DNA from: Leptolyngbyaceae cyanobacterium
GTDB taxonomy: Bacteria; Cyanobacteriota; Cyanobacteriia; Phormidesmidales; Phormidesmidaceae
Reading direction: 5' to 3'
DNA length: 64,000 nt
Assembly: GCA_965263355.1 (NCBI GenBank)
Contig: CBDHHL010000032.1
Location: 1-64,000 of the forward strand
Made by a program: the position numbers and the translations under genes. Shown here piece by piece: positions 94 to 58,535 of the stretch. A model generated the notes under the pieces. It saw only the letters and a list, made by a program, of their open reading frames with translations. It ran no database searches and was not told the DNA's origin. How positions within the stretch are numbered: the first letter of the stretch is position 1; every line of letters starts with the position of its first letter.

Positions 94-208
94 TCAGAAT
101 CCATATGGGATAGGCATTTCTACATGATGACGGATAATGGAGTTTAGCCCAAGGCTTGAGTTGAATCGTCAGTTTGGGAACTGGTAACTGATAAGAAGAG
201 GCTTAGCG
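47..208 (-). repeat. Repeat A copy 1: upstream region plus first 16 codons of the resident ABC permease gene
   Basis: Near-identical to 2267-2434, 5012-5187 and 6116-6291. Confidence 0.95.
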
Positions 209-220
209 GAAACATAGGCG

Positions 221-631: not shown

Positions 632-761
632 GGGCTGAAATTTTGACAGAACGTTAGCTTGGCTCTGTTTCCTCAGCTTGAATTATAGTTCAATCGTGCC
701 CAGCAACTGAGTTGCTAGAATGTGAGTAAACCGCCCATTAACTTAATCGGCAGTGAGCGCC

Positions 762-908
762 ATGGCATCTCTTGAGCAAATCCAGCAAGAACTCAAAACC
801 CTCTCCCCAGATGCTTTGAATCTAGTTCATCAGTTTGTCCAACTACTCAAAAAAGCTATTGCCCTCGCCGAACAGCAAGAGAATACATTGTCCCAAGCCT
901 CTGATTAG
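762..908 (+). CDS. 48-aa DUF2281-like putative antitoxin or fragment
   Basis: MASLEQIQQELKTLSPDALNLVHQFVQLLKK...; duplicated at 2987-3133. Confidence 0.5.
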   Translation: MASLEQIQQELKTLSPDALNLVHQFVQLLKKAIALAEQQENTLSQASD

Positions 909-939
909 TTAATTGCCCAACTCCCTTGCTTATCAGCAC

Positions 940-1356
940 ATGCCTTCTAAGGACCTTCACCACAATGCTGTTAAAAATGCCTTAACAAAGGATGGTTGGC
1001 TAATCACAGACGATCCTTATATCATCAAATATGAAGACGCTGAACTTTATGCGGATTTGGGTGCTGAGAAAACCTTGGCTGCAGAGCGTCAAGGGCAAAA
1101 AATTGTAGTTGAGGTTAAAAGTTTCGTTGGTAAATCCATGATGTATGACTTTCACGGTGCCCTGGGTCAGTACATCGTTTATCGTGATCTTATTCAGCTA
1201 ACGGAGCCAGAGCGGACGCTTTATCTGGCCATTGATGATTTGGTCTATTCGGAGTTTTTTCAGCGTAAGTCAATATCTGTTATTGCTCGTCAGAATCAGC
1301 TACGACTCATAGTGGTCGATATTACTCGGGAGGCAGTTGTGAAATGGATACCGTAG
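940..1356 (+). CDS. xisH: XisH family protein (fdxN element excision factor-like)
   Basis: KDLHHNAVKNALTKDGWLITDDP, ADLGAEK, VEVKSF and ALGQY motifs; overlaps xisI. Confidence 0.92.
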   Translation: MPSKDLHHNAVKNALTKDGWLITDDPYIIKYEDAELYADLGAEKTLAAERQGQKIVVEVKSFVGKSMMYDFHGALGQYIVYRDLIQLTEPERTLYLAIDDLVYSEFFQRKSISVIARQNQLRLIVVDITREAVVKWIP

Positions 1357-1697
1357 AAAGCTATAGAAATACGATTAAAACCCTGCTGGTTAACTATTAC
1401 GACCGCTCTATCTCACAAAATCATCATCAGCTACAGACAGAAGTTTGCGATCGCTTAGCTCTAGATGATGATCGCGACCAATATCTCTGGTTTCGATTTG
1501 GCTGGCAAGATAAAATCCTGGTACAGCATATCATCATGTATCTCTGCATTAAGGATGGTAAAGTCTGGGTAGAGCAAGATTCTACCGACCTATGTATTGT
1601 CGATGATCTGGTTGTCGCTGGCATTCCGGCAAACAACATCGTTTTGGGTTTTCATCATCCCCAAAAGCGAGTTTTAACCGAATTTGCGCCAGCCTAA
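1344..1697 (+). CDS. xisI: XisI family protein
   Basis: IKDGKVWVEQD and GIPANNIVLGFHHP motifs; translationally coupled to xisH. Confidence 0.92.
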   Translation: MDTVESYRNTIKTLLVNYYDRSISQNHHQLQTEVCDRLALDDDRDQYLWFRFGWQDKILVQHIIMYLCIKDGKVWVEQDSTDLCIVDDLVVAGIPANNIVLGFHHPQKRVLTEFAPA

Positions 1698-1819
1698 TGC
1701 AAAGCAATAGAAACTTGACTGTCGGATTAGTCGATACATTGCGGCAACTGAGCCATGATGTTTTGACTTACTATGAGGCTGATAAGGGACTTGCCAAAAA
1801 ATAACACCCCCTACCTGAA

Positions 1820-1851
1820 CCATCCACCCATCCACTCATCGACTCATCCAC
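1820..1851 (+). repeat. Short tandem octamer repeat (C/T)CATC(C/G)AC x4, STRR-like
   Basis: ccatccac ccatccac tcatcgac tcatccac. Confidence 0.7.
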
Positions 1852-2001
1852 AGCCTTTGACGGGTACTTTATTTCCAAGCAGTTCCCTAATGCCAATCAG
1901 CGCTGCCTGATGATCAGGTTCTAGCCATTATCACAGTGATGGCAGGGCCATGCTCACTTGCAATTTTGGCTATCCCTTTCACCCTCTTAAATATTGAGAA
2001 T

Positions 2002-2128
2002 ATTGAGCTAAATATCGCAATTGAGAATACAGCTCTCAGAACAGTAGTCGTTTTTCTTTCCTCTGAGCCAGCGGGAACAAACTCATTCTTGTTATTATCT
2101 CAGTTTTTTAAGTAGTTCTTCTGTGAAG
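2002..2128. repeat. Repeat B copy 1 (~127 bp, diverged copy at 7175-7301)
   Basis: attgagctaaat...cagctctc...cagtagtcgttttt...agtagttctt..gtgaag at both loci. Confidence 0.85.
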
Positions 2129-2446
2129 TGATTGTTTCCCATTTTGGGGGCATCAATCAATTTTGTTGTTCAATAACAAATGGTCTAGCAAAGATAGAAC
2201 AACCTACTAATGGTTAAGCTTAGCTCTATCAGTTTGTTTAAACATGCTCATGAGATAAGCCATGACTTTCGGAACTGAATCCACGTTCTTTTTAATTCAC
2301 CGATAAGTAGGTTAATCATGCAGAATCTATATAGGGCAGGTGTTTCTATATGATGACGGATAATGGAGTTTAGCCCAAGGTCTGAGTTGAATCGTCAGTT
2401 TGGGAACTGGTAACTGATAAGAAGAGGTTTAGCGGAAACATAGGTG

Positions 2447-2856
2447 CTAAGCATGGACTGGAGGTGATTGGATGTCTAGCTGGGCCATGAGATCGGTTAG
2501 GGAGATCTGACGCAATTGAGCCAGGGCCATCAGGGTTTTCAAGTGTTTAGCATCGGCCTGCTCAACGGTATCAATCAGGGCCAGCAGGTCCTGGTGTTCT
2601 TCTGGGGAAATGGTTTCTGCCTGTAATTGGCCTGTAACTGGTCGTAGTGCTGCAGGGTTTCTGGAGGTAAACCCTGGTTGATTTGCTGGAGTAGTTCGGT
2701 TTCTTGGGCTGACAGACTACTTATCTTACGCTGGGCTAGCCGTTGGGTAACTTGCTCAGCAAAACGTTCCAGTTCAGGCGTTCCCAACTGAGCGACACCA
2801 GCCAGGAGCTGCTCCAGGCCAATGTTGATTTGGGAGGTAACTTGAACCGATGTCAT
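2447..2856 (-). pseudogene. HNH-partner protein, frameshifted copy
   Basis: 410 nt versus 411 nt; 1-bp deletion (tgtaattggcc versus tgtaatttggcc). Confidence 0.85.
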
Positions 2857-2986
2857 GGGCTGAAATTTTGACAGAACGTTAGCTTGGCTCTGTTTCCTCA
2901 GCTTGAATTATAGTTCAATCGTGCCCAGCAACTGAGTTGCTAGAATGTGAGTAAACCGCCCATTAACTTAATCGGCAGTGAGCGCC

Positions 2987-3133
2987 ATGGCATCTCTTGA
3001 GCAAATCCAGCAAGAACTCAAAACCCTCTCCCCAGATGCTTTGAATCTAGTTCATCAGTTTGTCCAACTACTCAAAAAAGCTATTGCCCTCGCCGAACAG
3101 CAAGAGAATACATTGTCCCAAGCCTCTGATTAG
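2987..3133 (+). CDS. 48-aa DUF2281-like protein, duplicate of 762-908
   Basis: Same sequence as 762-908. Confidence 0.5.
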   Translation: MASLEQIQQELKTLSPDALNLVHQFVQLLKKAIALAEQQENTLSQASD

Positions 3134-3164
3134 TTAATTGCCCAACTCCCTTGCTTATCAGCAC

Positions 3165-3340
3165 ATGCCTTCTAAGGACCTTCACCACAATGCTGTTAAA
3201 AATGCCTTAACAAAGGATGGTTGGCTAATCACAGACGATCCTTATATCATCAAATATGAAGACGCTGAACTTTTACAACTCTACTACGACTCATAGTTGT
3301 CGATATTACTCGGGAGGCAGTTGCGAAATGGATACCGTAG
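3165..3340 (+). pseudogene. xisH: xisH with 251-bp deletion and 10-nt filler
   Basis: Lacks the equivalent of 1049-1299; tacaactcta (3274-3283) sits at the junction. Confidence 0.9.
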
Positions 3341-3450
3341 AAAGCTATAGCAATACGATTAAAACCCTGCTGGTTAACTATTACGACCGCTCTATCTCAC
3401 AAAATCATCATCAGCTACAGACAGAAGTTTGCGATCGCTTAGCTCTAGAT
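3328..3450 (+). pseudogene. xisI: xisI 5' fragment
   Basis: Matches 1344-1466, then unrelated sequence. Confidence 0.9.
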
Positions 3451-3716
3451 TCTGAAAAATGAGGATGGAACAGAGAATAACAAGACCATAAACCCAATCC
3501 CCATGAAAATCATGCCGAAAGATGTGGGTCTGGGCGGCTCGGTGGTGGACATCGGTGAACTCAATCGCCAAATGAAAGAACAACTTGGGCCAATGACGGC
3601 AGGGCGCTTCGCCTTCCAAATGTGCGAGGGCACAGAGTCAGTCGAGTTCGGGGTAAAATGAAATATTTTTTCTACGATACAATTGAGTAACTGAGTAACT
3701 AGGTTAAACTCGATCC

Positions 3717-3917
3717 GTGGTCACATCTCTAAATATAAGCGAAACGTTATTGCAAGAAGCATTGGCCCTTGATGGCCAAGAAACGCTTGATACTTTAATT
3801 GAAACAGCACTGCGTGAATATATTCAACGACGCAAGCGCCTCAAAATATTAGAACTCTTCGGCACCATAGATTATGACGAAGGCTATGACTACAAGCAAC
3901 AACGTCATCAGCCATGA
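3717..3917 (+). CDS. vapB: VapB-type antitoxin
   Basis: 66 aa with LIETALREYIQRRKRLKILELFGTIDYD; ATGA overlap with the PIN gene. Confidence 0.85.
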   Translation: MVTSLNISETLLQEALALDGQETLDTLIETALREYIQRRKRLKILELFGTIDYDEGYDYKQQRHQP

Positions 3918-4324
3918 GCGTTATTGTTGATACTTCGGTTTGGTCATTAGCTTTGCGTCGGAAAACACCACCCGAGTCTTCCTCTGCCGTCCAAGCCTTG
4001 CGGAATCTTATTACTGATGATCAGGTTGCTTTGTTAGGGGCAATTCGTCAAGAAATTCTTTCTGGAGTCCGCAGCTCTGAGCAGTTTACTCGTCTGCGGG
4101 ATTATTTTCGAGGTTTCTCGGATCTGAAACTTGTTCCAGAAGACTATGAGCTTGCGGCAGAGTTCTTCAATACGTGCCGTCGCAACGGCATCCAGGGATC
4201 AAATACTGACTTCTTGATTTGCGCAACTACCCATCGTCGAAGCTATAGCATCCTTACGACTGACAAGGATTTTCAAAGATTTCAAGCACATATCCCCATC
4301 ACACTATCATCTGCTGACGGCTAA
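3914..4324 (+). CDS. vapC: VapC PIN-domain toxin
   Basis: VDTSVW, QEILSG, TDFLI and TTDKDF PIN acidic motifs. Confidence 0.92.
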   Translation: MSVIVDTSVWSLALRRKTPPESSSAVQALRNLITDDQVALLGAIRQEILSGVRSSEQFTRLRDYFRGFSDLKLVPEDYELAAEFFNTCRRNGIQGSNTDFLICATTHRRSYSILTTDKDFQRFQAHIPITLSSADG

Positions 4325-4416
4325 ACAGCTATTCGTAGGTTCGTTAGAACAGATCAATCCAATCAAAATACTGGCCCATCGACTACACTAAAACCATCAG
4401 CTCAACCACAAATTCC

Positions 4417-4980
4417 ATGGTTCCCAATGCCCTGCGCTGGACAACCCGAGACCTCGACGCCATGCCCGACGATGGCGGCTGGAAACGCTATGAAGTCATT
4501 GATGGAGACCTATACGTGACCCGTGCTCCCCATATTCGCCATCAGGGCGCAGGTGGCAACATTCATTTTGAACTAGAAATTTGGTCCAGACAGTCCCAAC
4601 TAGGTAAACCATTCCAAACCCCAGGTGTCATTTTCACTCCCACCGATGCCGTCATTCCCGATGTCGTCTGGATCAGCTACGATCGCCTCGCCAACGGCAT
4701 TGATGACGCTGGACACCTGATTGTCGCCCCTGAACTCATGGTGGAGATTCTTTCTCCCGGTGACCTAAATGAACAGCGAGATAAAGAAGTCAAACTTAAA
4801 CTCTACTCCCGCCATGGCGTTCAGGAATACTGGATCGTCAGTTGGCAATTGAAAACTCTAGAAATTTACCGCCGCACTGCTGCGCAACTTCAACTTGTCA
4901 GCACCCTGCTAGAGAGTGATACACTCACCTCCCCCTTGCTGCCAGGTTTCAGTACTCCCATGGCTCAAATTTTCCAATGA
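4417..4980 (+). CDS. Uma2 family endonuclease
   Basis: RYEVIDG, IPDVVW, APELMVEILSPG, DKEVKLKLY and GVQEYWIV motifs. Confidence 0.92.
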   Translation: MVPNALRWTTRDLDAMPDDGGWKRYEVIDGDLYVTRAPHIRHQGAGGNIHFELEIWSRQSQLGKPFQTPGVIFTPTDAVIPDVVWISYDRLANGIDDAGHLIVAPELMVEILSPGDLNEQRDKEVKLKLYSRHGVQEYWIVSWQLKTLEIYRRTAAQLQLVSTLLESDTLTSPLLPGFSTPMAQIFQ

Positions 4981-5011
4981 GAATTTCACCATTTTCGAAG
5001 CGAATCATCAC

Positions 5012-5187
5012 TTTCGGAACTGAATCCACGTTCTTTTTAATTCGCCGATGAGTAGGTTAATCATGCAGAATCTATATGGAATAGGCATTTTTACATGATG
5101 ACGGATAATGGAGTTTAGCCCAAGGATTAAGTTGAATCGTCAGTTTGGGAACTGGTAACTGATAAGAAGGGGCTTAGCGATCGCACC
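5012..5187 (-). repeat. Repeat A copy 3 (176 bp, HIP1 at 5177-5184)
   Basis: 175/176 identical to 6116-6291 by manual comparison; encodes MINLLIGELKRTWIQFRK*. Confidence 0.95.
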
Positions 5188-5360
5188 CGTATTGGACCGT
5201 TTACTAACGTATAACACCATGACCACAACAATACGGCAAGAAGCACTGCGGTAATTTTGGCAGAGCATTTTAGACATGGGTGAATGCTCTCGGTCGATCA
5301 GTGAGATTTCAATACCTATCGCTGGAAAATACTCACCCATTCCCTTTTTTTTGCTTTTCC

Positions 5361-5759
5361 CTAAATAAATAAACTAGGAGAGACCTTAAACAATTCAGCC
5401 AAAATCTTAGCTTGAGTCTTGCTAATCGATCTTTTTCCATTCACAATTTCCGATACCACTCCACTAGAGCCCAAAATCCCCACCAAATCTGCCTGACGAG
5501 TCCCACTTGCCGCCATAATATGACGCAGAATCTCATCTGGTGCAGACTCTGGCATAGGATATTGCTCTGTCTCATAAGCCTCAATCAACATCACCAACAG
5601 CCTATGAATCGCTGTTTCCTCAGGGGTCCGGTTAGGGTTAAACGTTAATTTCTCAACAATACCCAACGTGCGCTCATATTCTAGTTCTGTTTCAATCACT
5701 TTTGGAGTCGCTTCTAAAAGCAATTCGTTATAAGCCACCGGATTAAAAGTAAGGGTCAT
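5361..5759 (-). CDS. higA: HigA-type HTH antitoxin
   Basis: LIEAYE and QADLVGILGSSGVVSEIVNGKRSISK HTH; downstream of higB. Confidence 0.9.
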   Translation of the reverse strand: MTLTFNPVAYNELLLEATPKVIETELEYERTLGIVEKLTFNPNRTPEETAIHRLLVMLIEAYETEQYPMPESAPDEILRHIMAASGTRQADLVGILGSSGVVSEIVNGKRSISKTQAKILAELFKVSPSLFI

Positions 5760-6009
5760 TTTTCCACTTATCCTTATCGTATTCAGCGTGAGTTAAGAGG
5801 TACTTGTAATAGACAGTTTGGCTAACATAGTCAATACCAACAATTAGTCGATATTTATTACCCTTTACATTGAAGACAGTAAAATTACCCACTGCCTCAG
5901 CATCTCGATAAATTCTTCTCACATCCTCCAGCTTTTCCCAGTTAGCTTTTTTAACCACCGCGTACCAAGCCTCAATTGCCTGAAGTTTTCGAATCGAGAT
6001 CAAATGCAT
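5743..6009 (-). CDS. higB: HigB toxin (88 aa, apparently with a short N-terminal in-frame deletion)
   Basis: MHLISIRKL...WYAVVKKANW...VFNVKGNKYRLI...LTHAEYDK; shorter than typical ~100-aa HigB. Confidence 0.85.
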   Translation of the reverse strand: MHLISIRKLQAIEAWYAVVKKANWEKLEDVRRIYRDAEAVGNFTVFNVKGNKYRLIVGIDYVSQTVYYKYLLTHAEYDKDKWKNDPYF

Positions 6010-6115
6010 CGATGATGCCCACATTGAGGTTTCAAATAATTGTACTCTCATTTTGAGAGGATCGAGTATAATAAAGGTAATTACCGTCTCAATCCAGGGC
6101 ACAACGAATAGTCAT

Positions 6116-6291
6116 TTTCGGATCTGAATCCACGTTCTTTTTAATTCGCCGATGAGTAGGTTAATCATGCAGAATCTATATGGAATAGGCATTTTTACAT
6201 GATGACGGATAATGGAGTTTAGCCCAAGGATTAAGTTGAATCGTCAGTTTGGGAACTGGTAACTGATAAGAAGGGGCTTAGCGATCGCACC
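6116..6291 (-). repeat. Repeat A copy 4 (176 bp, HIP1 at 6281-6288)
   Basis: Direct repeat of 5012-5187; the pair brackets higBA. Confidence 0.95.
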
Positions 6292-6384
6292 ACTGTTGGA
6301 CACCTGAGTATCCATTAACTGACTATTCCACAAACGACTTACAACAATAATTATCAACCTATTGACCGTCTTACCACCCTACAG

Positions 6385-6627
6385 CTAACCTTCATTCGGA
6401 GGATGCAGCCCTGCCAATAGAAGCAGTCGTCGAAGATTATTGTAACCACCGCAGGCTAGGGCTAGATTCATTAAGGATGTTTCTCCGCCTGTAGATACTG
6501 GAATAATGTGCTCCATGACAAAAGGTTGCGAGGCGTAGTCCATAGAACTTTTACAATATTCGCAACGTCGCTTAGCACGTTCGATCACTTTGCGTTGCTG
6601 CTCTGCAGAAATATATGCACTAGGCAT
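6385..6627 (-). pseudogene. HNH endonuclease with in-frame internal deletion
   Basis: RCEYC..EHIIP..GG..NLALACGG is joined directly to the C-terminal NLRRLLLLAGLHPP; the second CxxC/N motif is incomplete. Confidence 0.75.
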
Positions 6628-7030
6628 GGACCGGAGGAGGCTGGATATCTAGCTGAGCCATAAGGTCGAGGAGAGGCATCTGACGTAGTTGAGCCAGTGT
6701 CATCAAGGCTTCAAGGCGCTTGGCATCAGACGGTTCAACGGTGTCAATCAGAGTCAGTAAGTCCTGGTGTTCTTCTGGAGAAATAGTTTCTGCCTGTAAT
6801 TTGGCCTGTAGTTGGTCGTAGCGCTGTTGGGTTTCTGGGGGCAAACTCTGGTTGATTTGCTGGAGTAGCTCGGTTTCTTGAGCTGGCAGGCTGCTTACTT
6901 TACGCTGGGCTAGAAGTTGGGTAACTTGCTCAGTAAAGCGTTCCAGATCAGGCGTTTCCAGCTGGGCAACATTGGCCAGGAGCTGATCCAGATCAATGTT
7001 GATTTGGGAGGTGACTTGAACCGATGTCAT
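6620..7030 (-). CDS. HNH-partner protein (putative antitoxin; often labelled STAS/SEC14), intact copy
   Basis: 136 aa, overlaps the HNH start; two decayed paralogs in the window. Confidence 0.75.
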   Translation of the reverse strand: MTSVQVTSQINIDLDQLLANVAQLETPDLERFTEQVTQLLAQRKVSSLPAQETELLQQINQSLPPETQQRYDQLQAKLQAETISPEEHQDLLTLIDTVEPSDAKRLEALMTLAQLRQMPLLDLMAQLDIQPPPVHA

Positions 7031-7174
7031 GGGCTGGAATTTTGACAGAACGTTAGCTTAGCCCTGTTGCCTCAAATTAAATTATAGCTAAACCATGGGA
7101 AATGGTTTTTCTTTAGGCAGTTTCTGATAAGTTAGCTTAGGTCAGCACATATCGATATCACCTCCGACAAACTC

Positions 7175-7301
7175 ATTGAGCTAAATGTCACAGTTGAGGA
7201 CGCAGCTCTCGGGGCAGTAGTCGTTTTTCTTTCCTGTGAGCCAGTGGAAACTAACTCATTTTTGTTATTCTCTCAGTTTTTTGAGTAGTTCTTTGGTGAA
7301 G
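7175..7301. repeat. Repeat B copy 2
   Basis: Diverged direct repeat of 2002-2128. Confidence 0.85.
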
Positions 7302-7330
7302 GGTAAGATTCGTTCAATCCATATTCCAGG

Positions 7331-7368
7331 AATAAAAAGCCCGTTAGCAACTAAGGTCACTAACGGGG
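7331..7368 (-). terminator. Rho-independent terminator
   Basis: CCCGTTAG/CTAACGGG stem followed by TTTTTATT on the minus strand. Confidence 0.65.
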
Positions 7369-7536
7369 TGGATGGTTTTGTTATTCGCTAAATCAATAAT
7401 TCCCGTTTTGACGTTCCCTCTAACAGCAATAGTTGCCGATTGGAATCAATACAGTCTCTGATTGTGTAGGTGAGTCGTGAATAGTGAGGCAGATTGGGTG
7501 ATATCCTGTAGCAACTGACGGAATGTCTAGGGCAGT

Positions 7537-7569
7537 AAAAACCCGCTAATAATCGAGACTATTAGCGGG
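7537..7569 (-). terminator. Rho-independent terminator of the PEP-CTERM-like gene
   Basis: CCCGCTAATA/TATTAGCGGG stem plus T5 on the minus strand. Confidence 0.7.
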
Positions 7570-7655
7570 CCAGTCTGTTGTATTACTTTTAGTATTCCCA
7601 GTTGAGCTGGGAGGCTTTTTGAGAACAAGCGACAAAACCACTCATCGCCCACCCA

Positions 7656-8270
7656 TTATTCTGCCCACTCATTGTTGTATTTGCGTAATGCACGCATTCC
7701 TAGCCCCAGAATTCCAAGTAATAAGCTGGGTCCCGGAACCGGTGTTGTTGTATCTGGATTAATCGGTGTGCCATGCAGATTAATAGAAAAATTTCCAATT
7801 TGATTTTCTGTTTGGACTGCAGAAAAGCTACCGATGGCAGTACCCAAAATCTTTCCATCTAAATCTACAATATTGCCGCTAAGCATTGAATCAACGGTAA
7901 AACGATTGTTACTGGAAAATCCGGCAAAAACCTGTTGACCAGCATCTAAGTTGAAAACAGCCGCTTCCCCAAGAAATTGAAAACCGGTGATATACGATGA
8001 AACAGGGGCATAGACACTGTTTTCTGTAATGCCAAAGTCTTCCAGTACTCCCTCTAGGAGTATAGAGCCAATTTGTAAAGCATTTGGGTCTACCACAGTG
8101 AACTGAGTATCGTTATCAGGAATTTGTACTTCATTAGTAACCGATAGTTCAGCTGGTAAACCATTTGAAGTATAGCTAGCATTACCTCCGATACTGAAGG
8201 CTTGGGCTGGAATTGCTGATAAGCTAATGGTGATAGCTGTAATCGCTGAAGAGAGTTTGATCAGGTTCAT
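7656..8270 (-). CDS. Secreted PEP-CTERM/PTPA-CTERM sorting-domain protein
   Basis: Signal peptide ending PAQA; C-terminal PVPGPSLLLGILGLG followed by basic RALRK. Confidence 0.8.
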   Translation of the reverse strand: MNLIKLSSAITAITISLSAIPAQAFSIGGNASYTSNGLPAELSVTNEVQIPDNDTQFTVVDPNALQIGSILLEGVLEDFGITENSVYAPVSSYITGFQFLGEAAVFNLDAGQQVFAGFSSNNRFTVDSMLSGNIVDLDGKILGTAIGSFSAVQTENQIGNFSINLHGTPINPDTTTPVPGPSLLLGILGLGMRALRKYNNEWAE

Positions 8271-50178: not shown

Positions 50179-51162
50179 ATGGTATTGATTCAAAAAGTCC
50201 CCGTTACTGTATTAACTGGCTATCTGGGGGCTGGCAAAACCACATTACTCAATCGGATTCTCACAGAAGAGCATAATCAACGGGTTGCCGTTATTGTCAA
50301 TGAATTTGGCGAAGTTGGTATTGACCATCAGTTAGTGATGGATGCCGACGAAGAAATTTTTGAAATGAATAATGGCTGCATTTGTTGTACGGTGCGGGGA
50401 GATTTAATTCGGATTATTAATGATCTGATGACCCGGCGAGATCGGTTTGATCATTTGGTGATTGAAACCACTGGGTTAGCCGATCCGGCTCCGGTTATTC
50501 AATCCTTCTTTGTGGACGAGGTAATGCTGCGTCAGACCCAGCTGGATGCGGTGGTGACTGTGGTGGACGCCAAGCACATTTGGGCTCATTGGGACAGTAG
50601 TGAGGCTCAAGAACAGATTGCCTTTGCCGATGTGATTTTGCTTAACAAAACTGATTTGGTGTCTGCTGAGATTTTGGAGGCGTTAATGCAGAAGGTAAGG
50701 GGGATGAATGCGATCGCAAAAATCCACACCACCCAAAACTGTGACATTGACCTCAGTCTTTTGTTGGGAGTTCAAGCCTTTGACCTCAAAAATGCCCTGA
50801 GTATTGATCCTACCTTTTTAGACGAAGATGCCCATGAGCATGACAATTCTGTCTTTTCTATAGCGATTAAAAATGCAGAAGCCATTGATATTGATGAGCT
50901 AAATCGCTGGCTCTATCGGCTGGTACAGGCAAAAGGCCCCGATATCTTTCGCATGAAAGGGATTTTGAATGTGGCTAATGCTGAACGACGGTTTGTATTT
51001 CAAGGTGTACACATGACCTTAGATGGTCGGCCTGGTAAACCATGGCGACCAGGGGAGACTCGTCAAAATGAGCTGGTTTTTATTGGTCGCAATTTAGATG
51101 AGGCAGAGCTTCGAACTGGATTTGAGAATTGTTTTGCAAAAGCCTATGCCCATTCAATGTGA
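50179..51162 (+). CDS. CobW/COG0523 metallochaperone GTPase
   Basis: [27 protein letters not shown] and NKTD. Confidence 0.95.
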
Positions 51163-51164
51163 GG

Positions 51165-51196
51165 CTGACCCACCCCGGAGCCCCTCCCAGGAGGGG
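51165..51196 (+). repeat. 32-bp hairpin repeat CCCCTCCCAGGAGGGG, copy 1
   Basis: 3 mismatches versus 52680-52711. Confidence 0.8.
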
Positions 51197-51281
51197 CTAG
51201 GGTATCGGTTCTTGCGTTAAGTATTGCATTTTACTAAATCTTTTTTCGACTTTTTCATCCTACTGAGAACAAGACAAACCT

Positions 51282-52028
51282 ATGAAACTACAACATGCCC
51301 TTGGCGGGCTGCAAGGATTAGACACCATTACCCCAGAAATAGAGGTATTTGTTGAGCCTTGGGAAAAGCGAATCTTTGGCATTCATACGGCGATGATGGC
51401 CCTTAGTAACCATCTTGATACAGCCTTACCGGGCTATGCCATTGATGAGGTGCCTACCACCTTTAAGAGCTTTTGGACCTGGGGCCATTTGCGCATGGGA
51501 GCAGAGGGAATGCATCCCTTTGAGTACTTCCGATTACGGTATTACGAGAAATGGCTGGGGGGTATTTCAGGCTTCTTTGTTAGCGAAGGTTACATTACCC
51601 AGGAAGAGCTAGATGCGCGCACCGCTGAGTATTTAGAGGACAGCGAAGCCGCAGCAGCCCCTTTGCCCAGTGGAGGCGACGCAGCCATTGATGATCAGGT
51701 GGTGAAATACTTGAGAGAAGGGGATTCTCCCATGCGTCCCTTGGTAGCTCCACCCAAATTTAGTTTGGGTGATCAGGTCAAGATCAAGATTGTCTCTCCT
51801 GGTGCCCATAGCCGCTTGCCTGGTAATTTGCAAGGCCGCGTAGCCACAGTGGTCAAGGTGTATGAAGGGGCGTTTACCTACTTCTTTCCCACCGCCGATG
51901 GCATTGGTGTTCCCATGCCGGTTTATAGTCTGGCTTTTCAAGTAGAAGACCTGTGGGATGAATCGTTGACTGAGCCGAATACGGTTTACTACAACGACAT
52001 TTTTGAAGTGTACATAGAAGCCGCGTAA
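51282..52028 (+). CDS. nthB: Nitrile hydratase beta subunit
   Basis: H.LGG, F.EPWEKR, LR...E.M.P..Y...YYEKWL and HSRLP. Confidence 0.9.
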   Translation: MKLQHALGGLQGLDTITPEIEVFVEPWEKRIFGIHTAMMALSNHLDTALPGYAIDEVPTTFKSFWTWGHLRMGAEGMHPFEYFRLRYYEKWLGGISGFFVSEGYITQEELDARTAEYLEDSEAAAAPLPSGGDAAIDDQVVKYLREGDSPMRPLVAPPKFSLGDQVKIKIVSPGAHSRLPGNLQGRVATVVKVYEGAFTYFFPTADGIGVPMPVYSLAFQVEDLWDESLTEPNTVYYNDIFEVYIEAA

Positions 52029-52052
52029 ACAAGGTGATTGAAGGAGTCTATT

Positions 52053-52676
52053 ATGCCAAGTAATTACCCAGGATTTAGATACGGTGCTGATCGAGAAACC
52101 TTTAGTGCTGCTAAAGTCAAAGCCCTAGAGTCTCTTCTAATCGAAAAAGGAATTATCACCGGGAATACGGTAGATACGATTCTCAGTTATTTTGAAACTG
52201 AGATGGGTCCCTTTAATGGCGCTAAAGTGGTGGCAAAAGCATGGGTTGATCCTGATTTTAAGAAGCTGTTGCTAGAAGACTGTAATGCGGCCTGTGAAGC
52301 CATGGACTTTCCTGAAGGAATGTCGGGGGCAGAGGGGGAACACATGCGCATTGTGGAGAATACGCCCGAGGTGCATAACGTAATCGTGTGTACCCTATGT
52401 TCTTGTTATCCCTGGCCTACATTAGGCTTACCCCCCTACTGGTTTAAGGATCCTACGTTTAGAGCAAGAGTCGTTCGAGAACCTCGCGTTGTTTTGTCTG
52501 AATTTGGCGTAGAGTTAGATGACTCTGTAAAAGTTCTCGTGTGGGATAGCAGTGCTCAGATTCGCTGGTGGGTGTTGCCTATGCGTCCTCCTGGCACAGA
52601 AGCCATGAGTGAGACAGAGCTAGCGAGCTTACTAACACCTGAAGCCATGATGGGCGTTGCTACCGTCTCAGTTTAA
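52053..52676 (+). CDS. nthA: Nitrile hydratase alpha subunit, Co-type
   Basis: GAKVVAKAWVDP, VCTLCSCYPWP and VWDSSA; AAGGAG RBS. Confidence 0.96.
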   Translation: MPSNYPGFRYGADRETFSAAKVKALESLLIEKGIITGNTVDTILSYFETEMGPFNGAKVVAKAWVDPDFKKLLLEDCNAACEAMDFPEGMSGAEGEHMRIVENTPEVHNVIVCTLCSCYPWPTLGLPPYWFKDPTFRARVVREPRVVLSEFGVELDDSVKVLVWDSSAQIRWWVLPMRPPGTEAMSETELASLLTPEAMMGVATVSV

Positions 52677-52679
52677 ATG

Positions 52680-52711
52680 CTAACCCACCCCGTTGCCCCT
52701 CCCAGGAGGGG
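52680..52711 (+). repeat. 32-bp hairpin repeat, copy 2
   Basis: Direct repeat of 51165-51196. Confidence 0.8.
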
Positions 52712-52801
52712 ATGAAGTCTCGGTCTTTGCATTTGAGCACTGCATTAGATTCTCGACTCTTATGTAGCCCAAATGTATTCATTTCCCTCAGGTTCCTTGA
52801 T

Positions 52802-53167
52802 ATGTTTACACAATTCGAACATTTTGCGGCGACTAGCTTAATGGGTTCGCCTGAAGAAGCACCACCCCGGAGCAATGGTCATCTCCAGTTTGATCGTGAC
52901 TGGGAAAAGATGGCCTTTGGTGTGGCCATTGCCCTCTCAAAGCAGGGTTATTATGAGTGGGAAGAATTTCGTCAAACATTGATTGCAACGATTGGTGAGT
53001 GGGAAGCTACCCACGATCTAGACGATCCAGAATGGGATTATTACCAATGTTGGTTAACTGCCCTAGAGAAATTGGTCGTTGCCTCAGGTGTACTCAAAGC
53101 AGGTGAATTGGAATCACAACTATCTCAGTTGTTGAACTGCAAAGCAACGACTGAGATGAAATGCTGA
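52802..53167 (+). CDS. Nitrile hydratase accessory/activator protein
   Basis: PPRSNGHLQF..WE..AFG, WEEFRQ.LI and YYQCWLTALEKL. Confidence 0.9.
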   Translation: MFTQFEHFAATSLMGSPEEAPPRSNGHLQFDRDWEKMAFGVAIALSKQGYYEWEEFRQTLIATIGEWEATHDLDDPEWDYYQCWLTALEKLVVASGVLKAGELESQLSQLLNCKATTEMKC

Positions 53168-53336
53168 TTATTTGACCTTATACCCGTGGACTACCATGAA
53201 ATAGCGATTTTTGATGCTAATTCAACTATTACAGTGAATTACATCAGGCTCGATTAGTTGCCCGTAGTGTTAGTGTCGTATTTCTTTCTTCAGCAGGTTA
53301 AGAGTAATCTCTTCAACAGTTTTCTATCCGTGCTCT

Positions 53337-53369
53337 AAATACCCTGATTTTAGTATCAGGGTATTTTTT
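53337..53369 (+). terminator. Rho-independent terminator of the NHase operon
   Basis: AAATACCCTGAT/ATCAGGGTATTT stem plus T run. Confidence 0.75.
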
Positions 53370-53390
53370 ATACCAATACTCCGGACAGAA

Positions 53391-53692
53391 TTAGGAGACT
53401 AGAACCCCATAGTCACAAAGACTCGAATAGTTGGGATGTGATTTAATCAAAGTCTCGTCTAAGTCTAAGTTGCGAATAAACCTGTCCATCAGATGTTGAT
53501 TGAGTTTGCGACGTTTGTAGGAGGCCATGGAAAAGACAAAGGGTTCCCACGGTCTCGCTGCTGATACTGTTCCCATTTGGCGATATTCAAAGCGGTTAGC
53601 GAGGCATTGAAATGGAAATCGAGTTTCTGTTCATCCCTGGCTTGGCAGTCCGTTAAGCCGGTGAACTGTTTTGCATCTCTAAAAATAAATTC
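53391..53692 (-). pseudogene. IS4-family transposase C-terminal part
   Basis: EFIFRDAKQFTGLTDCQARDEQKLDFHFNASL, a frameshift, then FSMASYKRR...YGVLVS. Confidence 0.88.
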
Positions 53693-53866
53693 AATGTGCC
53701 AGCCATAACACCCCCATAAGAACGAAATCTACTTCGTGCCCAACGATTGGATTAACAGGCCTATTGCGATTAGTAAAGACGATCGCGAAAATGAAAACTC
53801 ATTCCCTGTTGTCAATAGAGGAAGAGCCTTCATGCCAAAGTGTCCTGAGCCCCCCCGTCAATTCGT

Positions 53867-54001
53867 GTGCAACCCAAGCACCTATGGCAAACACTGCCGG
53901 AGCCACAGCGGCAACGGCTAATGAGCATCCTCAGTCAGATGCTAGAGAGTCATCTGAGCGCCTCTGTGGCAAAGGAGGCGAGCAATGAGCCTGAAAACTG
54001 A
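53867..54001 (+). CDS. Small helical ORF overlapping the recombinase start (candidate directionality factor)
   Basis: VQPKHLWQTLPEPQRQRLMSILSQMLESHL...NEPEN*; may start at ATG 53832 across a C7 run. Confidence 0.5.
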   Translation: MQPKHLWQTLPEPQRQRLMSILSQMLESHLSASVAKEASNEPEN

Positions 54002-56141
54002 ACTCAGCTGGGTTTCCGAAAAGCTTCAAGCGCATCACCTAGAGCGATTGGCTATCGTGTACGTACGCCAGTCCACCTTGCAACAAGTGCTAGACCATCA
54101 AGAATCGACGCGAATTCAGTACAGCTTGGTAGATCGTGCCCAAGCGCTGGGCTGGCAACCAGGCCGCATTCTGACGATAGATGAAGACTTGGGTAAGTCG
54201 GGTAGCAGCGCCGAAGGCCGTTTAGGCTTTCAGCGTCTGGTCACTGAAGTCGGTCTCAACCATGTGGGCCTGATATTAGGTGTAGAAATGTCCCGTCTGG
54301 CTCGCTGCTCTAAAGATTGGCATCAATTGCTGGAAATCTGTGCACTGTTCGGTACGCTAATAGCAGACCTCGATGGCATTTATGACCCCAGCGGGTATAA
54401 CGACCGCTTACTGTTGGGCTTAAAAGGCACCATGAGCGAAGCCGAACTCCATATCCTCAAACAGCGCATGGTTCAAGGGAAGCGCAACAAAGCCAAGCGA
54501 GGCGAACTAGGCTTCAGCGTCCCGATAGGCTATGTTCGTCGCCCCTCGGGAGAGATTCGCTTTGACCCAGACGAACAGGCCCAACAAGTGGTCAAGCTCA
54601 TCTTTCGTAAGTTTGAGGAGCTAGGTACGCTGAACGCGGTACTGCGCTATCTTGTTAGCAATCACATCCAAGTCGGTGTCAGGGTTCTATCGGGTCTTAA
54701 CAAAGGAGATTTAGAGTGGCGCAGGCCGAATCGGCCCACCTTACAGAATCTGCTGAGAAGCCCAGTCTATGCAGGTGCTTACGCTTATGGCCGCAAGCAG
54801 ATGGATGCGAGACGAAAAAAGGTTGAACACCCTCATGGCGGCTTAGTCGTGAAACCAATGGACGAGTGGCTCGTGTTGATTAAAGACCATCATCCTGCTT
54901 ACATTTCCTGGGCGCAATATGAACAACATCTGGCCCAACTCAAATCGAATCGAGCCAGAGCTGATGAATGTGGCCATGCCCGCTCAGGCGCAGCTTTGTT
55001 ATCAGGGCTGCTGACCTGCGGTCGCTGTGGCGCTCGCATGACGGTTCGCTACCATCGAGGGCCAGCCTCTCATTGCTATGTCTGCAACCGTGAGATGGCA
55101 GACTATGGTGGAGAACTTTGTCAGCAGTTGGCAGGGGTGTGTTTAGATGAATCTGTCACCGAACAAGTTCTACGAGCATTAAAACCAGCGGCATTGGAGC
55201 TATCGTTAACGGCTGCAACCCACATCGAACAAGACCGTGCCGAATTAGACAAGTTATGGCATCAGCGATTAGAACGTGCCCGTTTTGAGTCAGAGCGTGC
55301 TGGTCGGCATTATCATCTTATAGAGCCCGAAAATCGTCTCGTTGCTAGGCAACTAGCTCAGGAATGGGAGCATGCCTTACAAGCAGAGCAACAGCTCAAA
55401 GAAGAGTATAAGAGATTCTCTCATGAACAACCTAGGCAGCTCACAGATGAAGAAAAGAAACAGATTCGTCAACTCTCAGAATGCCTGCCTAACTTGTGGT
55501 TTGCTGAAACAACGACCCATGCACAGCGAAAAGAAATTGTTCGTCAAATAATTCAGAAGATTGTTGTAAATATTGAAGGTGAAAGTGAACAAGTTCAGGT
55601 TAGTATTGAGTGGAGTGGTGGTTTTATTGGAAAAGCGAGTGTCATTCGCCCCGTGGCCAAATGGACTCAGCTAAGCAACTACTCACAACTTTGTGAGCGC
55701 CTTAGACAAATGGCCGAAGCACAGTTAAGCACTGATGAAATGATTGCGCGACTCCACCAAGAAGGCTTTCATCCACCGAAGCGTCGCAAAACGTTCAACC
55801 GAGAGATTTTGCGGTCATTAATGCGGCGACTCGGACTCGGTACTCGCCGTAGCCCAAAATCTAGAAAACCCTTGGCTACGCATGAGTGGTGGTTGCCTGA
55901 TTTAGCGCTGGCTTTAGAGATGCCGGAGGTAACCCTTTATAATTGGGTGCAACGAGGCTGGGTCAATGGACGACAACTGCCTGAACCACCTAAACACTGG
56001 GTGATCTGGGCGGATGAAGCCGAGCTAGGACGACTCCGTGCCCATCGAGCACGCCCTGTCGGTGACGTGCGACGACAGCTGTGGCAGGGAGAAGTGCTTG
56101 ACATCACTGTTCCGCCTACAATACCCCAAACCAATGAGTGA
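53985..56141 (+). CDS. Large serine recombinase (resolvase, recombinase, Zn ribbon, coiled coil, C-terminal HTH)
   Basis: YVRQST catalytic Ser, DLGKSG, EMSRLAR, LSGLLTCGRCG and EVTLYNWVQRG; GGAGG RBS. Confidence 0.95.
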   Translation: MSLKTELSWVSEKLQAHHLERLAIVYVRQSTLQQVLDHQESTRIQYSLVDRAQALGWQPGRILTIDEDLGKSGSSAEGRLGFQRLVTEVGLNHVGLILGVEMSRLARCSKDWHQLLEICALFGTLIADLDGIYDPSGYNDRLLLGLKGTMSEAELHILKQRMVQGKRNKAKRGELGFSVPIGYVRRPSGEIRFDPDEQAQQVVKLIFRKFEELGTLNAVLRYLVSNHIQVGVRVLSGLNKGDLEWRRPNRPTLQNLLRSPVYAGAYAYGRKQMDARRKKVEHPHGGLVVKPMDEWLVLIKDHHPAYISWAQYEQHLAQLKSNRARADECGHARSGAALLSGLLTCGRCGARMTVRYHRGPASHCYVCNREMADYGGELCQQLAGVCLDESVTEQVLRALKPAALELSLTAATHIEQDRAELDKLWHQRLERARFESERAGRHYHLIEPENRLVARQLAQEWEHALQAEQQLKEEYKRFSHEQPRQLTDEEKKQIRQLSECLPNLWFAETTTHAQRKEIVRQIIQKIVVNIEGESEQVQVSIEWSGGFIGKASVIRPVAKWTQLSNYSQLCERLRQMAEAQLSTDEMIARLHQEGFHPPKRRKTFNREILRSLMRRLGLGTRRSPKSRKPLATHEWWLPDLALALEMPEVTLYNWVQRGWVNGRQLPEPPKHWVIWADEAELGRLRAHRARPVGDVRRQLWQGEVLDITVPPTIPQTNE

Positions 56142-56253
56142 CAACTATTTGAATCGTCTGTAGGAGAAGATATATGCTCAAAAAACAGCCTCTGGAAAAC
56201 CTACCTCGGCAGAATCAACTAAATGCCTATGGGGGTAATGAGGCTGGCACATC

Positions 56254-57167
56254 TCGATTTGGAAGCGCGCTCGGTACGCCTCGACTAGTTGCATCGGGTC
56301 GAGGTCAATATCGGTGGAGAATAGCAATGCATAGCATAGCCGTTCGGGATGCTTGCGATTGAGCAGATACACCACTCGAATCTTGTGCTTGAGGTAAACG
56401 GACCAGACCACAGCTGTGTAGAGTTCGGTTTCGGGGTCGACCTCACCGAGTGCTGCCAGCGAGTGAGGTCAGTCAAATCAACCTTACCGTCATATTTACG
56501 GCGCGCGCCACGAGGCTTTTGCGGACCGTCATAGAGATAGTTCAAGTTGGCATCGCAACGGAGCTTACCAATCGTGTCTAGCCCCAACTCAACCACACCA
56601 TTCACCCACTTTTGCTTGCTGTAGAAGCCATCCCCCACCAAGTATCGAACGGCTGCTGGGAAGGTATCTCGGGTAGCCTGCAAGTGGTCTAGATAGTCAT
56701 CAACCCGTGTGTCCGGTCTGTGTCCACTTCATCGACGGGCTCAAGTGACGGTGGGGTCTGTTGCACCGATAGCGTGTAGCCAATGAGTTGTTCGACGTCT
56801 ACCACCGCGATCATCGAGATCTCTAACCCCCGTTCGGTCCGACTGGCTTTGCCATTGTAGAAACGGTCTACGCCGTAGGTGGCTTTCCCACTTTTGGGCA
56901 CAAACGACGCATCCACCACCCCCACCTGGAAATGGGTTGGCACAATGGCGGCCTCAATCACGACTTGAGTGAAGCTCATGAATTCATAAGGCTGCTCAAA
57001 GTGACGACGATAGGTCCGCTCCGACAGGTCGCTATAACGACTCAGATTGGTGAAGTTTACCTTGCCACACATCACATAGATGGTCGTAAACAGGGTGATT
57101 AAAAACTGGCGACGAGGTTTGCTAAATGGCCCACTTTACGCAGTAGACCCGGTATCATGCATAGCAT
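56254..57167 (-). pseudogene. IS4-family transposase N-terminal part with several frameshifts
   Basis: VNFTNLSRY, VDASFVPKSGK, VGDGFYSK, GKLRCDANL and YRARFQIE spread over several frames. Confidence 0.9.
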
Positions 57168-57443
57168 AGCTATTCAGGTTGGTTTGTCTGTTAACAAAAC
57201 CTTAGAGCCTGGATAGCTTTTCTGTCTATTTCTCTCGCTTTTCTGTCCGGACTATTGTTATACAAGATACATATCTCTGCGTCGTCTTCAATACATTCGT
57301 TGCTCTAATAAAGGCCTGACATTTCTTAAGCTTGTATTGCTTGTCGGGTAAAATCATTAACTGCTCTGGTATACTAATCTCAAGAAAGAAATAATGTTTT
57401 TAGTGATTGAGATATCTGAAATGCTGCATTATCTTATGATTAT

Positions 57444-57457
57444 GTAAATAATGCTAC
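57444..57457 (+). promoter_or_regulatory. Possible NtcA box
   Basis: GTA-AATAATGC-TAC upstream of the dehydrogenase-like gene; could be chance in AT-rich DNA. Confidence 0.25.
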
Positions 57458-57488
57458 TTTCTTCTCATTGTTTTGTCCCTTCTTCCCG

Positions 57489-58535
57489 ATGGTAAAGCTA
57501 GTCGTTACTCAAATGCACAAAATTCTTATTTCTCATTCCATTGATCCATACACTATTCATGATCTAGGGTTACGCCAAATAGACTATCCGGCAAATGAGA
57601 AATTTACTGGTGTAAATGAGCAGACATTTTATGCCTCTAACTCTTTTGAAGAGTTGCTTTACATGCCGAGCATAGCTGCAAAACAACGTCCTCAGGAGGA
57701 GTGCGATCCAACCCTCGAGGTGCTTCGACGCGTACTGATAACATTTCAGCCTGATGTTCTGATTGTGGGTAATAATGCTGTGCCTGGTAGGGCAATTCGT
57801 GCCTGGCGACAGGCTGTTGGTCCTAGCCGTGATTTACTTATTATTCGGCGAGGCGTTGATAAACGTGCAATTGATTGTAAAGTAGCGGCTGAGGAATCGG
57901 TGAGAGTTGGTAATTTGCCAGGGATCAATTCTCCTTTTGTTGCTAAATTTCAAGTCGAATGGTTGAAGCTCAGTGAAGATCGAGCCAACAGTAAGATAGC
58001 GATCATTGGCGTTGGCAACATTGGTAAAAATATTGCCTTAAGGGCTTTAGATTTTGGTCTTGATGTTCATCTTTTTAGTCCATCTTTACAGGATATAGAA
58101 AAGCGAGATCGTACATTAAGAGAACGCTCAATTCCACCTGATCTTGTAACCTGTGCAACTTCGTTGGAAGCAGCGTTTGAGAATGCTAAGTACATTGCTA
58201 TTTCTGTGCCCTGGCTTGATAGTTATGGTAATCCTCATAGGGGACTTTTGACTCGAGATTATGTTGAAAACGTTCAAAATAACGCCAAGATTAGCTCTGT
58301 CTCCCCCCCGCGAATGTTTTCCGATCAAGCTCTGGCTTGGATGAATCGACAAGTTAAGCAGGGCCATCTTGCTGTTCGAATTGATTCAGCCAAGCGTCTT
58401 GTTAAAGAAATCAGTTCTGATTACTCCCACCTCGAATTAGGTCATGATGTAGCATTTGCTGATAGTGCTTGTCAGCAAGCTCTTGATAGGGCTATGTTGA
58501 ACCAAGCTAGAGATTTTGCTGCGGTGCCAGTATAA
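57489..58535 (+). CDS. D-2-hydroxyacid dehydrogenase-like NAD-binding protein (divergent)
   Basis: IIRRGVD..ID, VGNLPGINS..VA and IAIIGVGNIG Rossmann motif. Confidence 0.7.
   Translation: MVKLVVTQMHKILISHSIDPYTIHDLGLRQIDYPANEKFTGVNEQTFYASNSFEELLYMPSIAAKQRPQEECDPTLEVLRRVLITFQPDVLIVGNNAVPGRAIRAWRQAVGPSRDLLIIRRGVDKRAIDCKVAAEESVRVGNLPGINSPFVAKFQVEWLKLSEDRANSKIAIIGVGNIGKNIALRALDFGLDVHLFSPSLQDIEKRDRTLRERSIPPDLVTCATSLEAAFENAKYIAISVPWLDSYGNPHRGLLTRDYVENVQNNAKISSVSPPRMFSDQALAWMNRQVKQGHLAVRIDSAKRLVKEISSDYSHLELGHDVAFADSACQQALDRAMLNQARDFAAVPV

Follow-up and report, generated by a model that had tools for sequence, protein, structure and literature searches.

What is a complete mobile element doing inside a single glutamate codon of a transposase gene, placed there to the base? 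The question is raised by a 64,000-nucleotide stretch of DNA from a Leptolyngbyaceae cyanobacterium (GenBank assembly GCA_965263355.1, contig CBDHHL010000032.1, positions 1 to 64,000), referred to here as the window. An insertion sequence (IS) of 1.32 kb, spanning 53374-57257, is split in it by an insert of 2563 bp (53693-56255, or equivalently 53691-56253) with TC at both junctions. Deletion of the insert restores ...YRARFQIEFIFRDAK on the minus strand with a frame that is continuous over the joint. A single open frame, ...AYRARFQIEFIFRDAKQFTGL..., is obtained once 53693-56255 is taken out, and the joined transposase reads ...DPMQLVEAYRARFQIEFIFRDAKQFTGLTDCQ, an exact Y-2-R-3-E-6-K motif. The TC at 53691-53692 is the left copy of the crossover dinucleotide; on the transposase strand it is GA, the first two bases of the Glu codon. 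The sequence of the empty site is CCAAATC-GA-ATTTATT.

The termini of the insert are perfect inverted repeats of 11 + 8 bp. On the plus strand the left junction reads ...AAATAAAT-TC-A-ATGTGCCAGCC-ATAACA-CCCCCATA, in which the left end of the element, one arm of the attachment site attP, occupies 53693-53718 (an A, ATGTGCCAGCC at 53694-53704, ATAACA, and CCCCCATA at 53711-53718). The right junction reads TATGGGGG-TAATGA-GGCTGGCACAT-C-TC-GATTTGG, with TATGGGGG at 56228-56235 and GGCTGGCACAT at 56242-56252, followed by C and the TC core at 56254-56255. The attP predicted from the joined ends is, on the transposase strand, tatgggggtgttatGGCTGGCACAT-T-GA-G-ATGTGCCAGCCtcattacccccata (equal to GGCTGGCACAT-T-GA-G-ATGTGCCAGCC), a near-palindrome. 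An earlier note, written from the sequence without database searches, had described this geometry, the junctions and the restoration of the YREK motif, and each point was reproduced; its palindromic attP around a GA core was obtained again as the same sequence. The anatomy recurs in the relatives described below and thus does not reflect chance, and these relatives support the note's central proposal of a minimal recombinase element with crossover at the GA of the YREK glutamate codon. With high confidence, we regard the insert as an autonomous, IS-like integrative element of 2563 bp whose only enzyme is a large serine recombinase (LSR), a parasite of parasites. A repeat search found no second copy of the element or of the IS inside the window, and a promoter scan of 53600-56400 returned 2 sites (2.5 expected).

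The LSR is a protein of 718 amino acids encoded on the plus strand at 53985-56141. Its Resolvase domain (PF00239; 66.7 bits, cut-off 23.3) covers residues 23-174 and is followed by a Recombinase domain (PF07508; 48.5 bits) and a zinc ribbon (PF13408, Zn_ribbon_recom; 33.8 bits), both over their Pfam cut-offs. Residues R28, Q29 and S30 are invariant in an alignment of 21 relatives, and S30 is probably the nucleophile. The C-terminal ~330 residues are without a Pfam family: residues 401-718 gave chance-level matches only, and a domain common in TndX-like enzymes, DUF4368, had no match in the LSR at E<=0.01 and none at E<=1 in residues 401-718. The best match in the PDB, SPbeta SprA/YokA (E 9e-9), is very distant and limited to residues 70-353. 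The geometry of crossover at a central dinucleotide is present, as TC/TC in the window and as a fixed GA/TC spacing in the relatives.

A protein search returned at least 8000 relatives of the LSR at E<=1e-20. The best 120 matches are 61-96% identical, and many of them lie on contigs of ~2.56-2.8 kb. In a scan restricted to one genome per species, 79 loci were kept out of 295 stretches with an LSR relative, giving 80 cases together with the window. These loci cover at least nine phyla (Cyanobacteriota, Chloroflexota, Actinomycetota, Pseudomonadota, Planctomycetota, Deinococcota, Acidobacteriota, Myxococcota and others), and more than 20 of the 79 come from Leptolyngbya sp. PCC 7375, which also holds the closest relative of the window LSR among them (locus L001, 95%). 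The relatives' LSRs are 49-95% identical, with a common anatomy and elements of equal length. Their inverted repeats share the core CAGCC-A-Y-AAT-R-CCCC-N-ATA. A rule that places the crossover dinucleotide 7 nt outside CAGCC at each end, applied blindly, located both ends in 54 of the 80 cases (53 loci and the window), and in 52 of the 54 the dinucleotide was alike at both junctions, being TC or GA relative to the LSR gene. The two exceptions are L008, where the right end was not properly found, and L014, a recombinant. Elements measure 2.50-2.68 kb and are longer only when they carry insertions of their own (L001, 3649 bp; L029, 3686 bp). L003 and L067 are element-length contigs bounded by the core, compatible with a circle or a collapsed repeat.

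The relatives also differ in orientation and in nesting. The core is TC in some lineages and GA in others, so that the LSR gene runs antiparallel or parallel to its target; in the sister elements L003 and L004 the central C-TC-A / T-GA-G is inverted, giving opposite orientations in the targets. L001 carries an IS630-family IS (NF033545, 210.9 bits) at 6926-7924 inside its LSR gene and is thus layered threefold, IS630 in an LSR element in an IS701-type IS. At L039, also in PCC 7375, an element lies within the end of a sister element of the istA-targeting type described below. L014 of the same genome combines the left flank of the L039 site with the right flank of an L012-type IS4 site, with unlike cores (GA and TC), and looks like a rearrangement between two copies.

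Where the relatives are inserted was read from their flanks, in the frame that puts GA at the start of a codon. After subtraction from the 80 cases of 7 without an end, 3 with doubtful ends, 2 with unlike cores and 3 without a flank, 65 were informative. The element lies at the GA of the glutamate of Y-x2-R-x3-E, or of variants of this motif, in 50 of the 65, in transposases of the IS701, IS4, IS5, IS6 and IS1380 families; there are 7 cases in istA, 2 in istB, one nested case (L039) and 5 other targets. With the interrupted glutamate set off by hyphens, the targets read ..Y.(A/L)RFQI-E-FIFRDAK for the IS701 type, ..YRCRWGI-E-QFFKDCK and others for the IS4 type, ..RW(V/I)V-E-RTFGWL for IS5, ..NNRA-E-NSHRPT and E-QDHRFIK for IS6, and ..YNGRGTA-E-QWIKEGK for IS1380. 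Among the 50, L044 (with GAC) and L040 (out of frame in its downstream part) are imperfect. Counted by distinct sequence of the target site (attB), 29 of 34 are at the DDE codon. NCBIfam models assigned 35 flank pieces to IS701 (7), IS4 (8), IS5 (9), IS6 (1), IS1380 (2), IS21 (1) and IstB (2), with 5 left without assignment. For pieces from DDE families, the profile match runs up to the junction and no further, which in each model is one and the same position (221/258 in 9/9 IS5 pieces), and the match to Pfam DDE_Tnp_1 ends at 163/200 in one IS701, one IS4 and one IS5 target. No Pfam or NCBIfam name was obtained for the targets of L020, L056, L074 and L051, nor for the C-terminal part of istA beyond Mu-transpos_C_2.

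Thus, the relatives mostly sit at the third catalytic Glu codon of DDE transposases from five IS families. This is what the earlier note had suggested looking for in the flanks of homologues. Its wider claim, that the Glu codon is the attB, stands for most relatives and fails for a lineage that uses a Ser codon of istA and for another that uses a Glu codon of istB.

Two histories could place so many elements at one codon, repeated entry or descent from few entries, and the genome of Leptolyngbya sp. PCC 7375 bears on both. It has 11 copies of one IS4-type IS, and the element sits at the same codon in 11/11. The 11 element copies are near-identical and their surroundings unrelated; four of the IS copies have their own 9-bp duplications (AGGATTTTC, ATACCCGTC, GTCCTCTCC and GTTCGCGAG). 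A composite that moves as a unit would account for such IS-plus-element units at different places. On this account a few ancestral IS copies were entered once, the element has been carried passively since, and its association with the glutamate codon reflects descent; the intact terminal repeats and 6-bp duplication of the window's host IS, described below, fit it as well. However, such a composite would be expected to show like diversity throughout, and the mean pairwise diversity (pi) was 0.0148 in the IS arms (362 + 932 columns) versus 0.00055 in the element (2565 columns). The arms are therefore 27 times more diverse than the element, which favours independent invasions and contradicts, in the one genome tested, the earlier suggestion that the element hitch-hikes on its host IS. 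The 27-fold difference is not attributable to purifying selection.

Descent from few entries is also at odds with the distribution of LSRs over targets. Identical LSRs in PCC 7375 occupy different kinds of site: L012 (another IS4 type), L013, L016-19, L020 (an unrecognised open reading frame, ORF) and L039 (the end of an istA-type element). In an LSR tree (FastTree, midpoint root, 61 intact rows of the 80) the target labels are clustered, yet 20 changes are needed against a minimum of 7. Sister LSRs are found in unlike targets, as with L010 in IS4 and L023 in IS701, and L003 and L004 stand beside LSRs that target IS701. With these points and the state of the window organism (see below), passive carriage is very unlikely. 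The sequences are most simply read as one element having spread recently into IS copies that were diverged by then, the alternative being continual replacement through excision and re-integration. As a separate observation, the 11 PCC 7375 IS copies have a common frame change compared with an intact homologue; it lies near residues 113-128 relative to L010 (seen in L015-L019, L021, L025 and L071) and may be a programmed shift or a shared defect.

The window organism itself provides empty sites and a second target. Region 53000-57600 was compared with contigs assembled from three runs of the same organism (X1, X2 and X3). One X3 contig joins 53690 to 56254, with exactly 2563 bp absent and TC shared. 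Loose contig ends in X1, X2 and X3 show the empty joint ..AAATAAAT-TC-GATTTGGAAGCGCGC on contigs that differ from the window (5 of 319 bases), and because of these differences they represent other, empty IS copies, as the earlier note had proposed searching for. X1 and X2 also contain the left end of the element next to a second flank, CCCGGTTTTACAATCTTTGAAAAATTG, an IS4-type E-QFFKDCK site. Therefore, the predicted attB exists, and in this organism the element uses no fewer than two targets. Both the empty copies and the IS4-type flank speak against passive carriage.

What singles out this codon may be visible in the attachment sites. Over 34 unique sites, oriented by GA, the attB consensus is cG.TGGg..aT.GAa......ttc; its upstream arm, cG.TGGg..aT.GA, is to be compared with GGCTGGc..ATtGA for the attP arm. 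The element end reads as codons for (R/G)-W-x-I-E. In nucleotides, R-(W/F)-x-(I/V)-E is spelled CGN-TGG/TTY-NNN-ATH-GA, and this would explain why one half of the target resembles an attP arm. We infer from these alignments that the LSR may bind a half-site that catalysis keeps constant in DDE transposases. Two departures from the common target were noted. In the istA lineage the element ends are altered along with the target, to GGCTAGTACATC-GA; and L056 is inserted after ..DQVWHI, where the DNA, GTGTGGCACATCGA, is almost an attP arm.

A looser view of the same sites is that GA and a few further bases are nearly all the LSR requires, and that insertions outside IS genes have been purged by selection. 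One identical LSR indeed has at least four unlike flanks in PCC 7375 (L012, L015, L020 and L039), the 95%-identical elements of the window and L001 occupy sites that differ at many positions, and five targets are not recognisable as IS genes. Such survivorship predicts insertions throughout IS genes and other dispensable DNA. In contrast, a single codon accounts for 50 of 65, each family has one fixed position where the profile match ends, and G.TGG...AT.GA is common to attP and the upstream arm of attB. This explanation is accordingly very unlikely, and we retain recognition of active-site DNA by the LSR as the preferred one.

The host IS of the window has intact terminal features, as the earlier note had stated. 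Its terminal inverted repeats (TIRs), CAATA[C/G]TCCGGACAGAA, are at 53374 and 57257, and a 6-bp direct repeat, TTATAC, the putative target-site duplication, stands on both sides (53368-53373 and 57258-57263). The arm at 53374-53690 (minus strand) encodes the C-terminal part of the transposase, with the TIR CAATACTCCGGACAGAA at 53374-53390 and FIFRDAKQFTGL... from 53689 downwards, and contains an additional frame change near its 3' end. The arm at 56256-57257 (minus strand; TIR at 57241-57257) encodes the N-terminal and catalytic part, ends in ...AYRARFQI at 56256, and is interrupted by two frame changes. A piece of it, 56689-57075 (128 amino acids), matches NCBIfam NF033540 (IS701) at 23.9 bits, a weak fragment match (cut-off 150), and Pfam DDE_5 at 27.9 bits (cut-off 27). 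The nearest intact homologue found, the target of L032 (411 amino acids, 51-70% identical to the window IS), has IS701 as its best model (85.8 bits, below the cut-off of 170). The host thus weakly appears to be IS701-like, the match of the window fragment itself being weak. It had been called an IS4 transposase, which NCBIfam does not support directly; IS701 is, at least, a relative of IS4. PCC 7375 contains one weak partial match to the window IS only (73% over 261 nt).

Beyond its ends, the host IS is not the otherwise intact copy that had been proposed. With the insert removed, it aligns to the L032 homologue in four pieces, in frames 1, 3, 2 and 1, and thus contains three frame changes; stops are visible in a three-frame translation. 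We read these changes as real because the recombinase ORF and the neighbouring genes are intact, which suggests that the copy has decayed beyond the insertion, an assembly error being possible. Excision would therefore not switch on the window copy, contrary to the on/off role once envisaged for it. A selected switch, in which reversible precise excision regulates the transposase for the benefit of IS or host, could invoke the exact restoration of the frame and the empty form in the same organism, but is extremely improbable given the three further frame changes of the window copy, the common frame change of the 11 PCC 7375 copies, the selfish-like movement of the element between IS families and phyla, and the base differences that mark the empty forms as paralogous copies and not as the window locus after excision.

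Besides the LSR gene, the element contains a second coding region, for which the description as a cargo of one tiny ORF proved inadequate: it is conserved, and complete only across the junction of the circle. The frame at 53695-53856 (plus strand; CASHNTPI...GLLRLVKTIAKMK...SPP) is open from the extreme end of the element, has no start codon of its own and ends in seven C (53850-53856). Past the C run, conserved coding continues in the +1 frame at 53849-54001 (plus strand; ..LWQTLPEPQRQRLMSILSQMLE..), with a stop 13 nt after the recombinase ATG. In 22/22 elements examined, the left-end frame is open for ~95-105 codons from the first bases. SHNTPI and GLLRLV..VAKIKA are conserved through synonymous changes, and no start codon lies upstream of these residues. 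The C run is located ~157 nt from the left end and comprises 6-9 residues in 49 of 55 distinct 5' regions (C7 in 30, C8 in 12, C6 in 6 and C9 in 1, with fewer than six in 6). Beyond it, conservation shifts to the next frame (LW..LP...RQRL..LLSQMLE); reading on without a shift leads to a stop in the ATGA at the LSR start. Diversity at the three codon positions in 17 elements follows this shift: 0.473/0.384/0.615 before the C run in the first frame and, after it, 0.458/0.314/0.563 in the second frame versus 0.563/0.458/0.314 in the first.

The missing start of this gene may be supplied by the other end of the element. The right end of the window element (56162-56255, plus strand) has a Shine-Dalgarno-like AGGAG near 56162 and an ATG at 56174, and reads outward through the terminal repeats; circularisation would put this ATG in the frame read from 53695. 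The circle-joined frame stays open in 46 of 47 distinct elements. In 39 of the 47, an in-frame ATG stands at one of four set distances from the right end (82 nt in 21, 88 in 10, 58 in 6 and 85 in 3); among the remaining eight it is scattered over 16-211 nt in seven and absent in one. A Shine-Dalgarno-like GGAG, GAGG or AGGA lies within 22 nt before the ATG in 38 of the 47. The encoded small protein matched no Pfam family worth naming at E<=5 and no Atlas entry at 0.9 or above. In the near-identical sister copies L028 and L029 of one genome, the C run is C8 and C9, respectively, and in their lineage C8 fuses both coding parts in frame. Less firmly than for the targets, these features suggest a small gene that would be whole only in the circle, whose reading would shift by +1 at the C run, on the ribosome or during transcription, to give the conserved C-terminal part, and whose translation may be linked to that of the LSR.

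Taken together, these findings can be placed in a scheme. The element would excise as a circle whose joined ends form attP (GGCTGGCACAT-N-GA-N-ATGTGCCAGCC). In the circle, the small gene, with its Shine-Dalgarno sequence and ATG located in the right end, would cross attP, enter the left end and overlap the start of the LSR, so that the split gene would couple expression to the excised state, in the manner of the circle-junction promoter of TnpX in Tn4451. The LSR would then recombine attP with the target, with crossover at GA. Such a target would be catalytically constant, multicopy and horizontally mobile, its loss would be costless to the cell, and the IS copy that is entered would be killed. 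We tentatively propose, with somewhat less than even confidence in the whole, that LSR mini-elements spread over many phyla read the active-site DNA of DDE transposases, act like a natural gene drive against IS, being able to fill and disable all copies in a genome (11/11 in one cyanobacterium), switch between IS families through small changes of their ends, and have an integrase controlled by a circle-only gene with a programmed +1 shift at C7.

Several observations weigh against parts of this overall interpretation. The role of the glutamate at the insertion as third catalytic DDE residue is taken from the known YREK motif (E326 in Tn5). The 7 istA (IS21) cases form a single PCC 7375 lineage and interrupt a Ser codon (HYY-S-VPYW) within the Mu-transposase C-terminal domain (Mu-transpos_C_2), and the 2 istB cases, although at a Glu codon, are at LCEL-E-VDRR. 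The targets of L002, L020, L056, L074 and L079 (5 of 65) were not recognised as IS genes. Most NCBIfam scores of the flanks, such as the 23.9 bits of the window piece, are below the curated cut-offs because only pieces of genes were scanned. Moreover, the 65 cases are not 65 events, since one genome supplies 25. Conservation is weak in the downstream arm of attB, with little beyond the Phe codon, and the target recognition proposed for the LSR derives from site alignments. Among the assembled contigs of the window organism, which drop rare forms, the back-joint of a circle was not found. As to the split gene, its 27 N-terminal codons at the right end have almost no codon periodicity (0.548/0.517/0.594), and the frame change at the C run in some records could be a homopolymer sequencing error as well as real slippage. 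Excision by LSRs normally requires a directionality factor. None was identified in the element, whose small protein is without a known family.

Among known systems, the closest functional likeness is to the clostridial transposons Tn4451/Tn4453 (TnpX) and Tn5397 (TndX), in which an LSR serves as transposase with a 2-bp core and a circle. The core in Tn4451/Tn4453 and Tn5397 is GA. Lyras and Rood in 2000 and Lyras and colleagues in 2004 reportedly found that the circle joint activates the recombinase and that TnpX is the sole element protein needed. The elements described here share the GA core, near-palindromic joined ends and an upstream gene that would be complete only in the circle, and, like other LSR transposons of this kind, use several unlike targets per recombinase, as seen for the identical LSRs of one genome and in the window organism. 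They differ in being 2.56 kb and cargo-free, compared with 6-21 kb with cargo; in a joint that restores an ORF with a frame change and not, as far as seen, a promoter; and in targets that are conserved codons of transposase genes. The 2-bp target site of TnpX is described in PMC3158075. DUF4368 is present in 63% of the TndX-like multi-targeting clade (PMC10083194), and the window LSR is unlike most of that clade in lacking it; the likeness is judged from descriptions, not sequences.

Other serine-recombinase systems resemble the element less. The phage integrases SprA/YokA of SPbeta have the same domain order (catalytic, recombinase, zinc ribbon). Here, however, there is no phage, the element is multi-copy with several targets per genome, and the window LSR has an extra C-terminal part of ~330 residues. 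IS607 elements are small and IS-like, with a serine recombinase and a circle; their TnpA is a small enzyme with an N-terminal DNA-binding domain, and they have no TIRs and minimal target specificity (PMC4058570 and PMC6188088). Membership in IS607 is ruled out by the 718-residue LSR, its catalytic domain in first place, the 11 + 8-bp repeats and the defined target. A survey of interruption elements of cyanobacteria with XisF-type serine recombinases (Hilton et al. 2016, PMC4874684) lists individual examples within transposase genes; for the two in its table, the recombinases are 460 and 396 amino acids long, the repeats 6 bp (GGTACT and GGTAGG) and the elements 3.9-4.1 kb, and the accessible part of that paper states no catalytic-codon or IS-targeting rule. 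The available text of Durrant et al. (2022, PMC10083194) does not report IS targets, and the GO term "transposase activity" applied there to 6 of 1069 targets versus 2 of 908 in the background, which was not significant. Prophages of Wolbachia phage WO of the sr3WO type carry an LSR and are flanked by transposases, according to PMC9203015. A relative of the window LSR from a Rickettsia endosymbiont (L070) is 49% identical.

No description of LSR elements aimed at transposase codons was found in the literature covered, subscription journals being mostly outside it. As far as found, then, the kind is known, a transposon driven by an LSR, while its habitat in an active-site codon, its minimal form and the putative split gene complete only in the circle are new. 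The layered parasitism, if true, would be a clear bacterial case of a site-specific element living in the active-site codon of transposable elements. In genomes rich in IS, those of filamentous cyanobacteria for example, the LSR family may hold IS activity down, which bears on the control of IS load. A circle-only gene with a frame change at a C run would, if true, be a new means of making integrase expression depend on excision. As compact enzymes whose natural sites are short, whose GA core is fixed and whose specificities vary naturally, these LSRs could also serve the study and re-targeting of serine integrases.

Other parts of the window contain features of separate interest. The genes upstream of the host IS (50179-53167) look by eye like a nitrile-hydratase-like cluster, with a CobW-like GTPase, two subunits (one with VCTLCSC) and a small accessory ORF. 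Two of the cluster genes are followed by a 55-nt intergenic repeat (51164-51218 and 52679-52733; 80% alike) that contains the palindrome CCCCTCCCAGGAGGGG. At the start of the window, 30-7301 contains long direct repeats of several families (197-300 nt, 78-99% alike) spaced at ~2.2 kb and ~4.2 kb.

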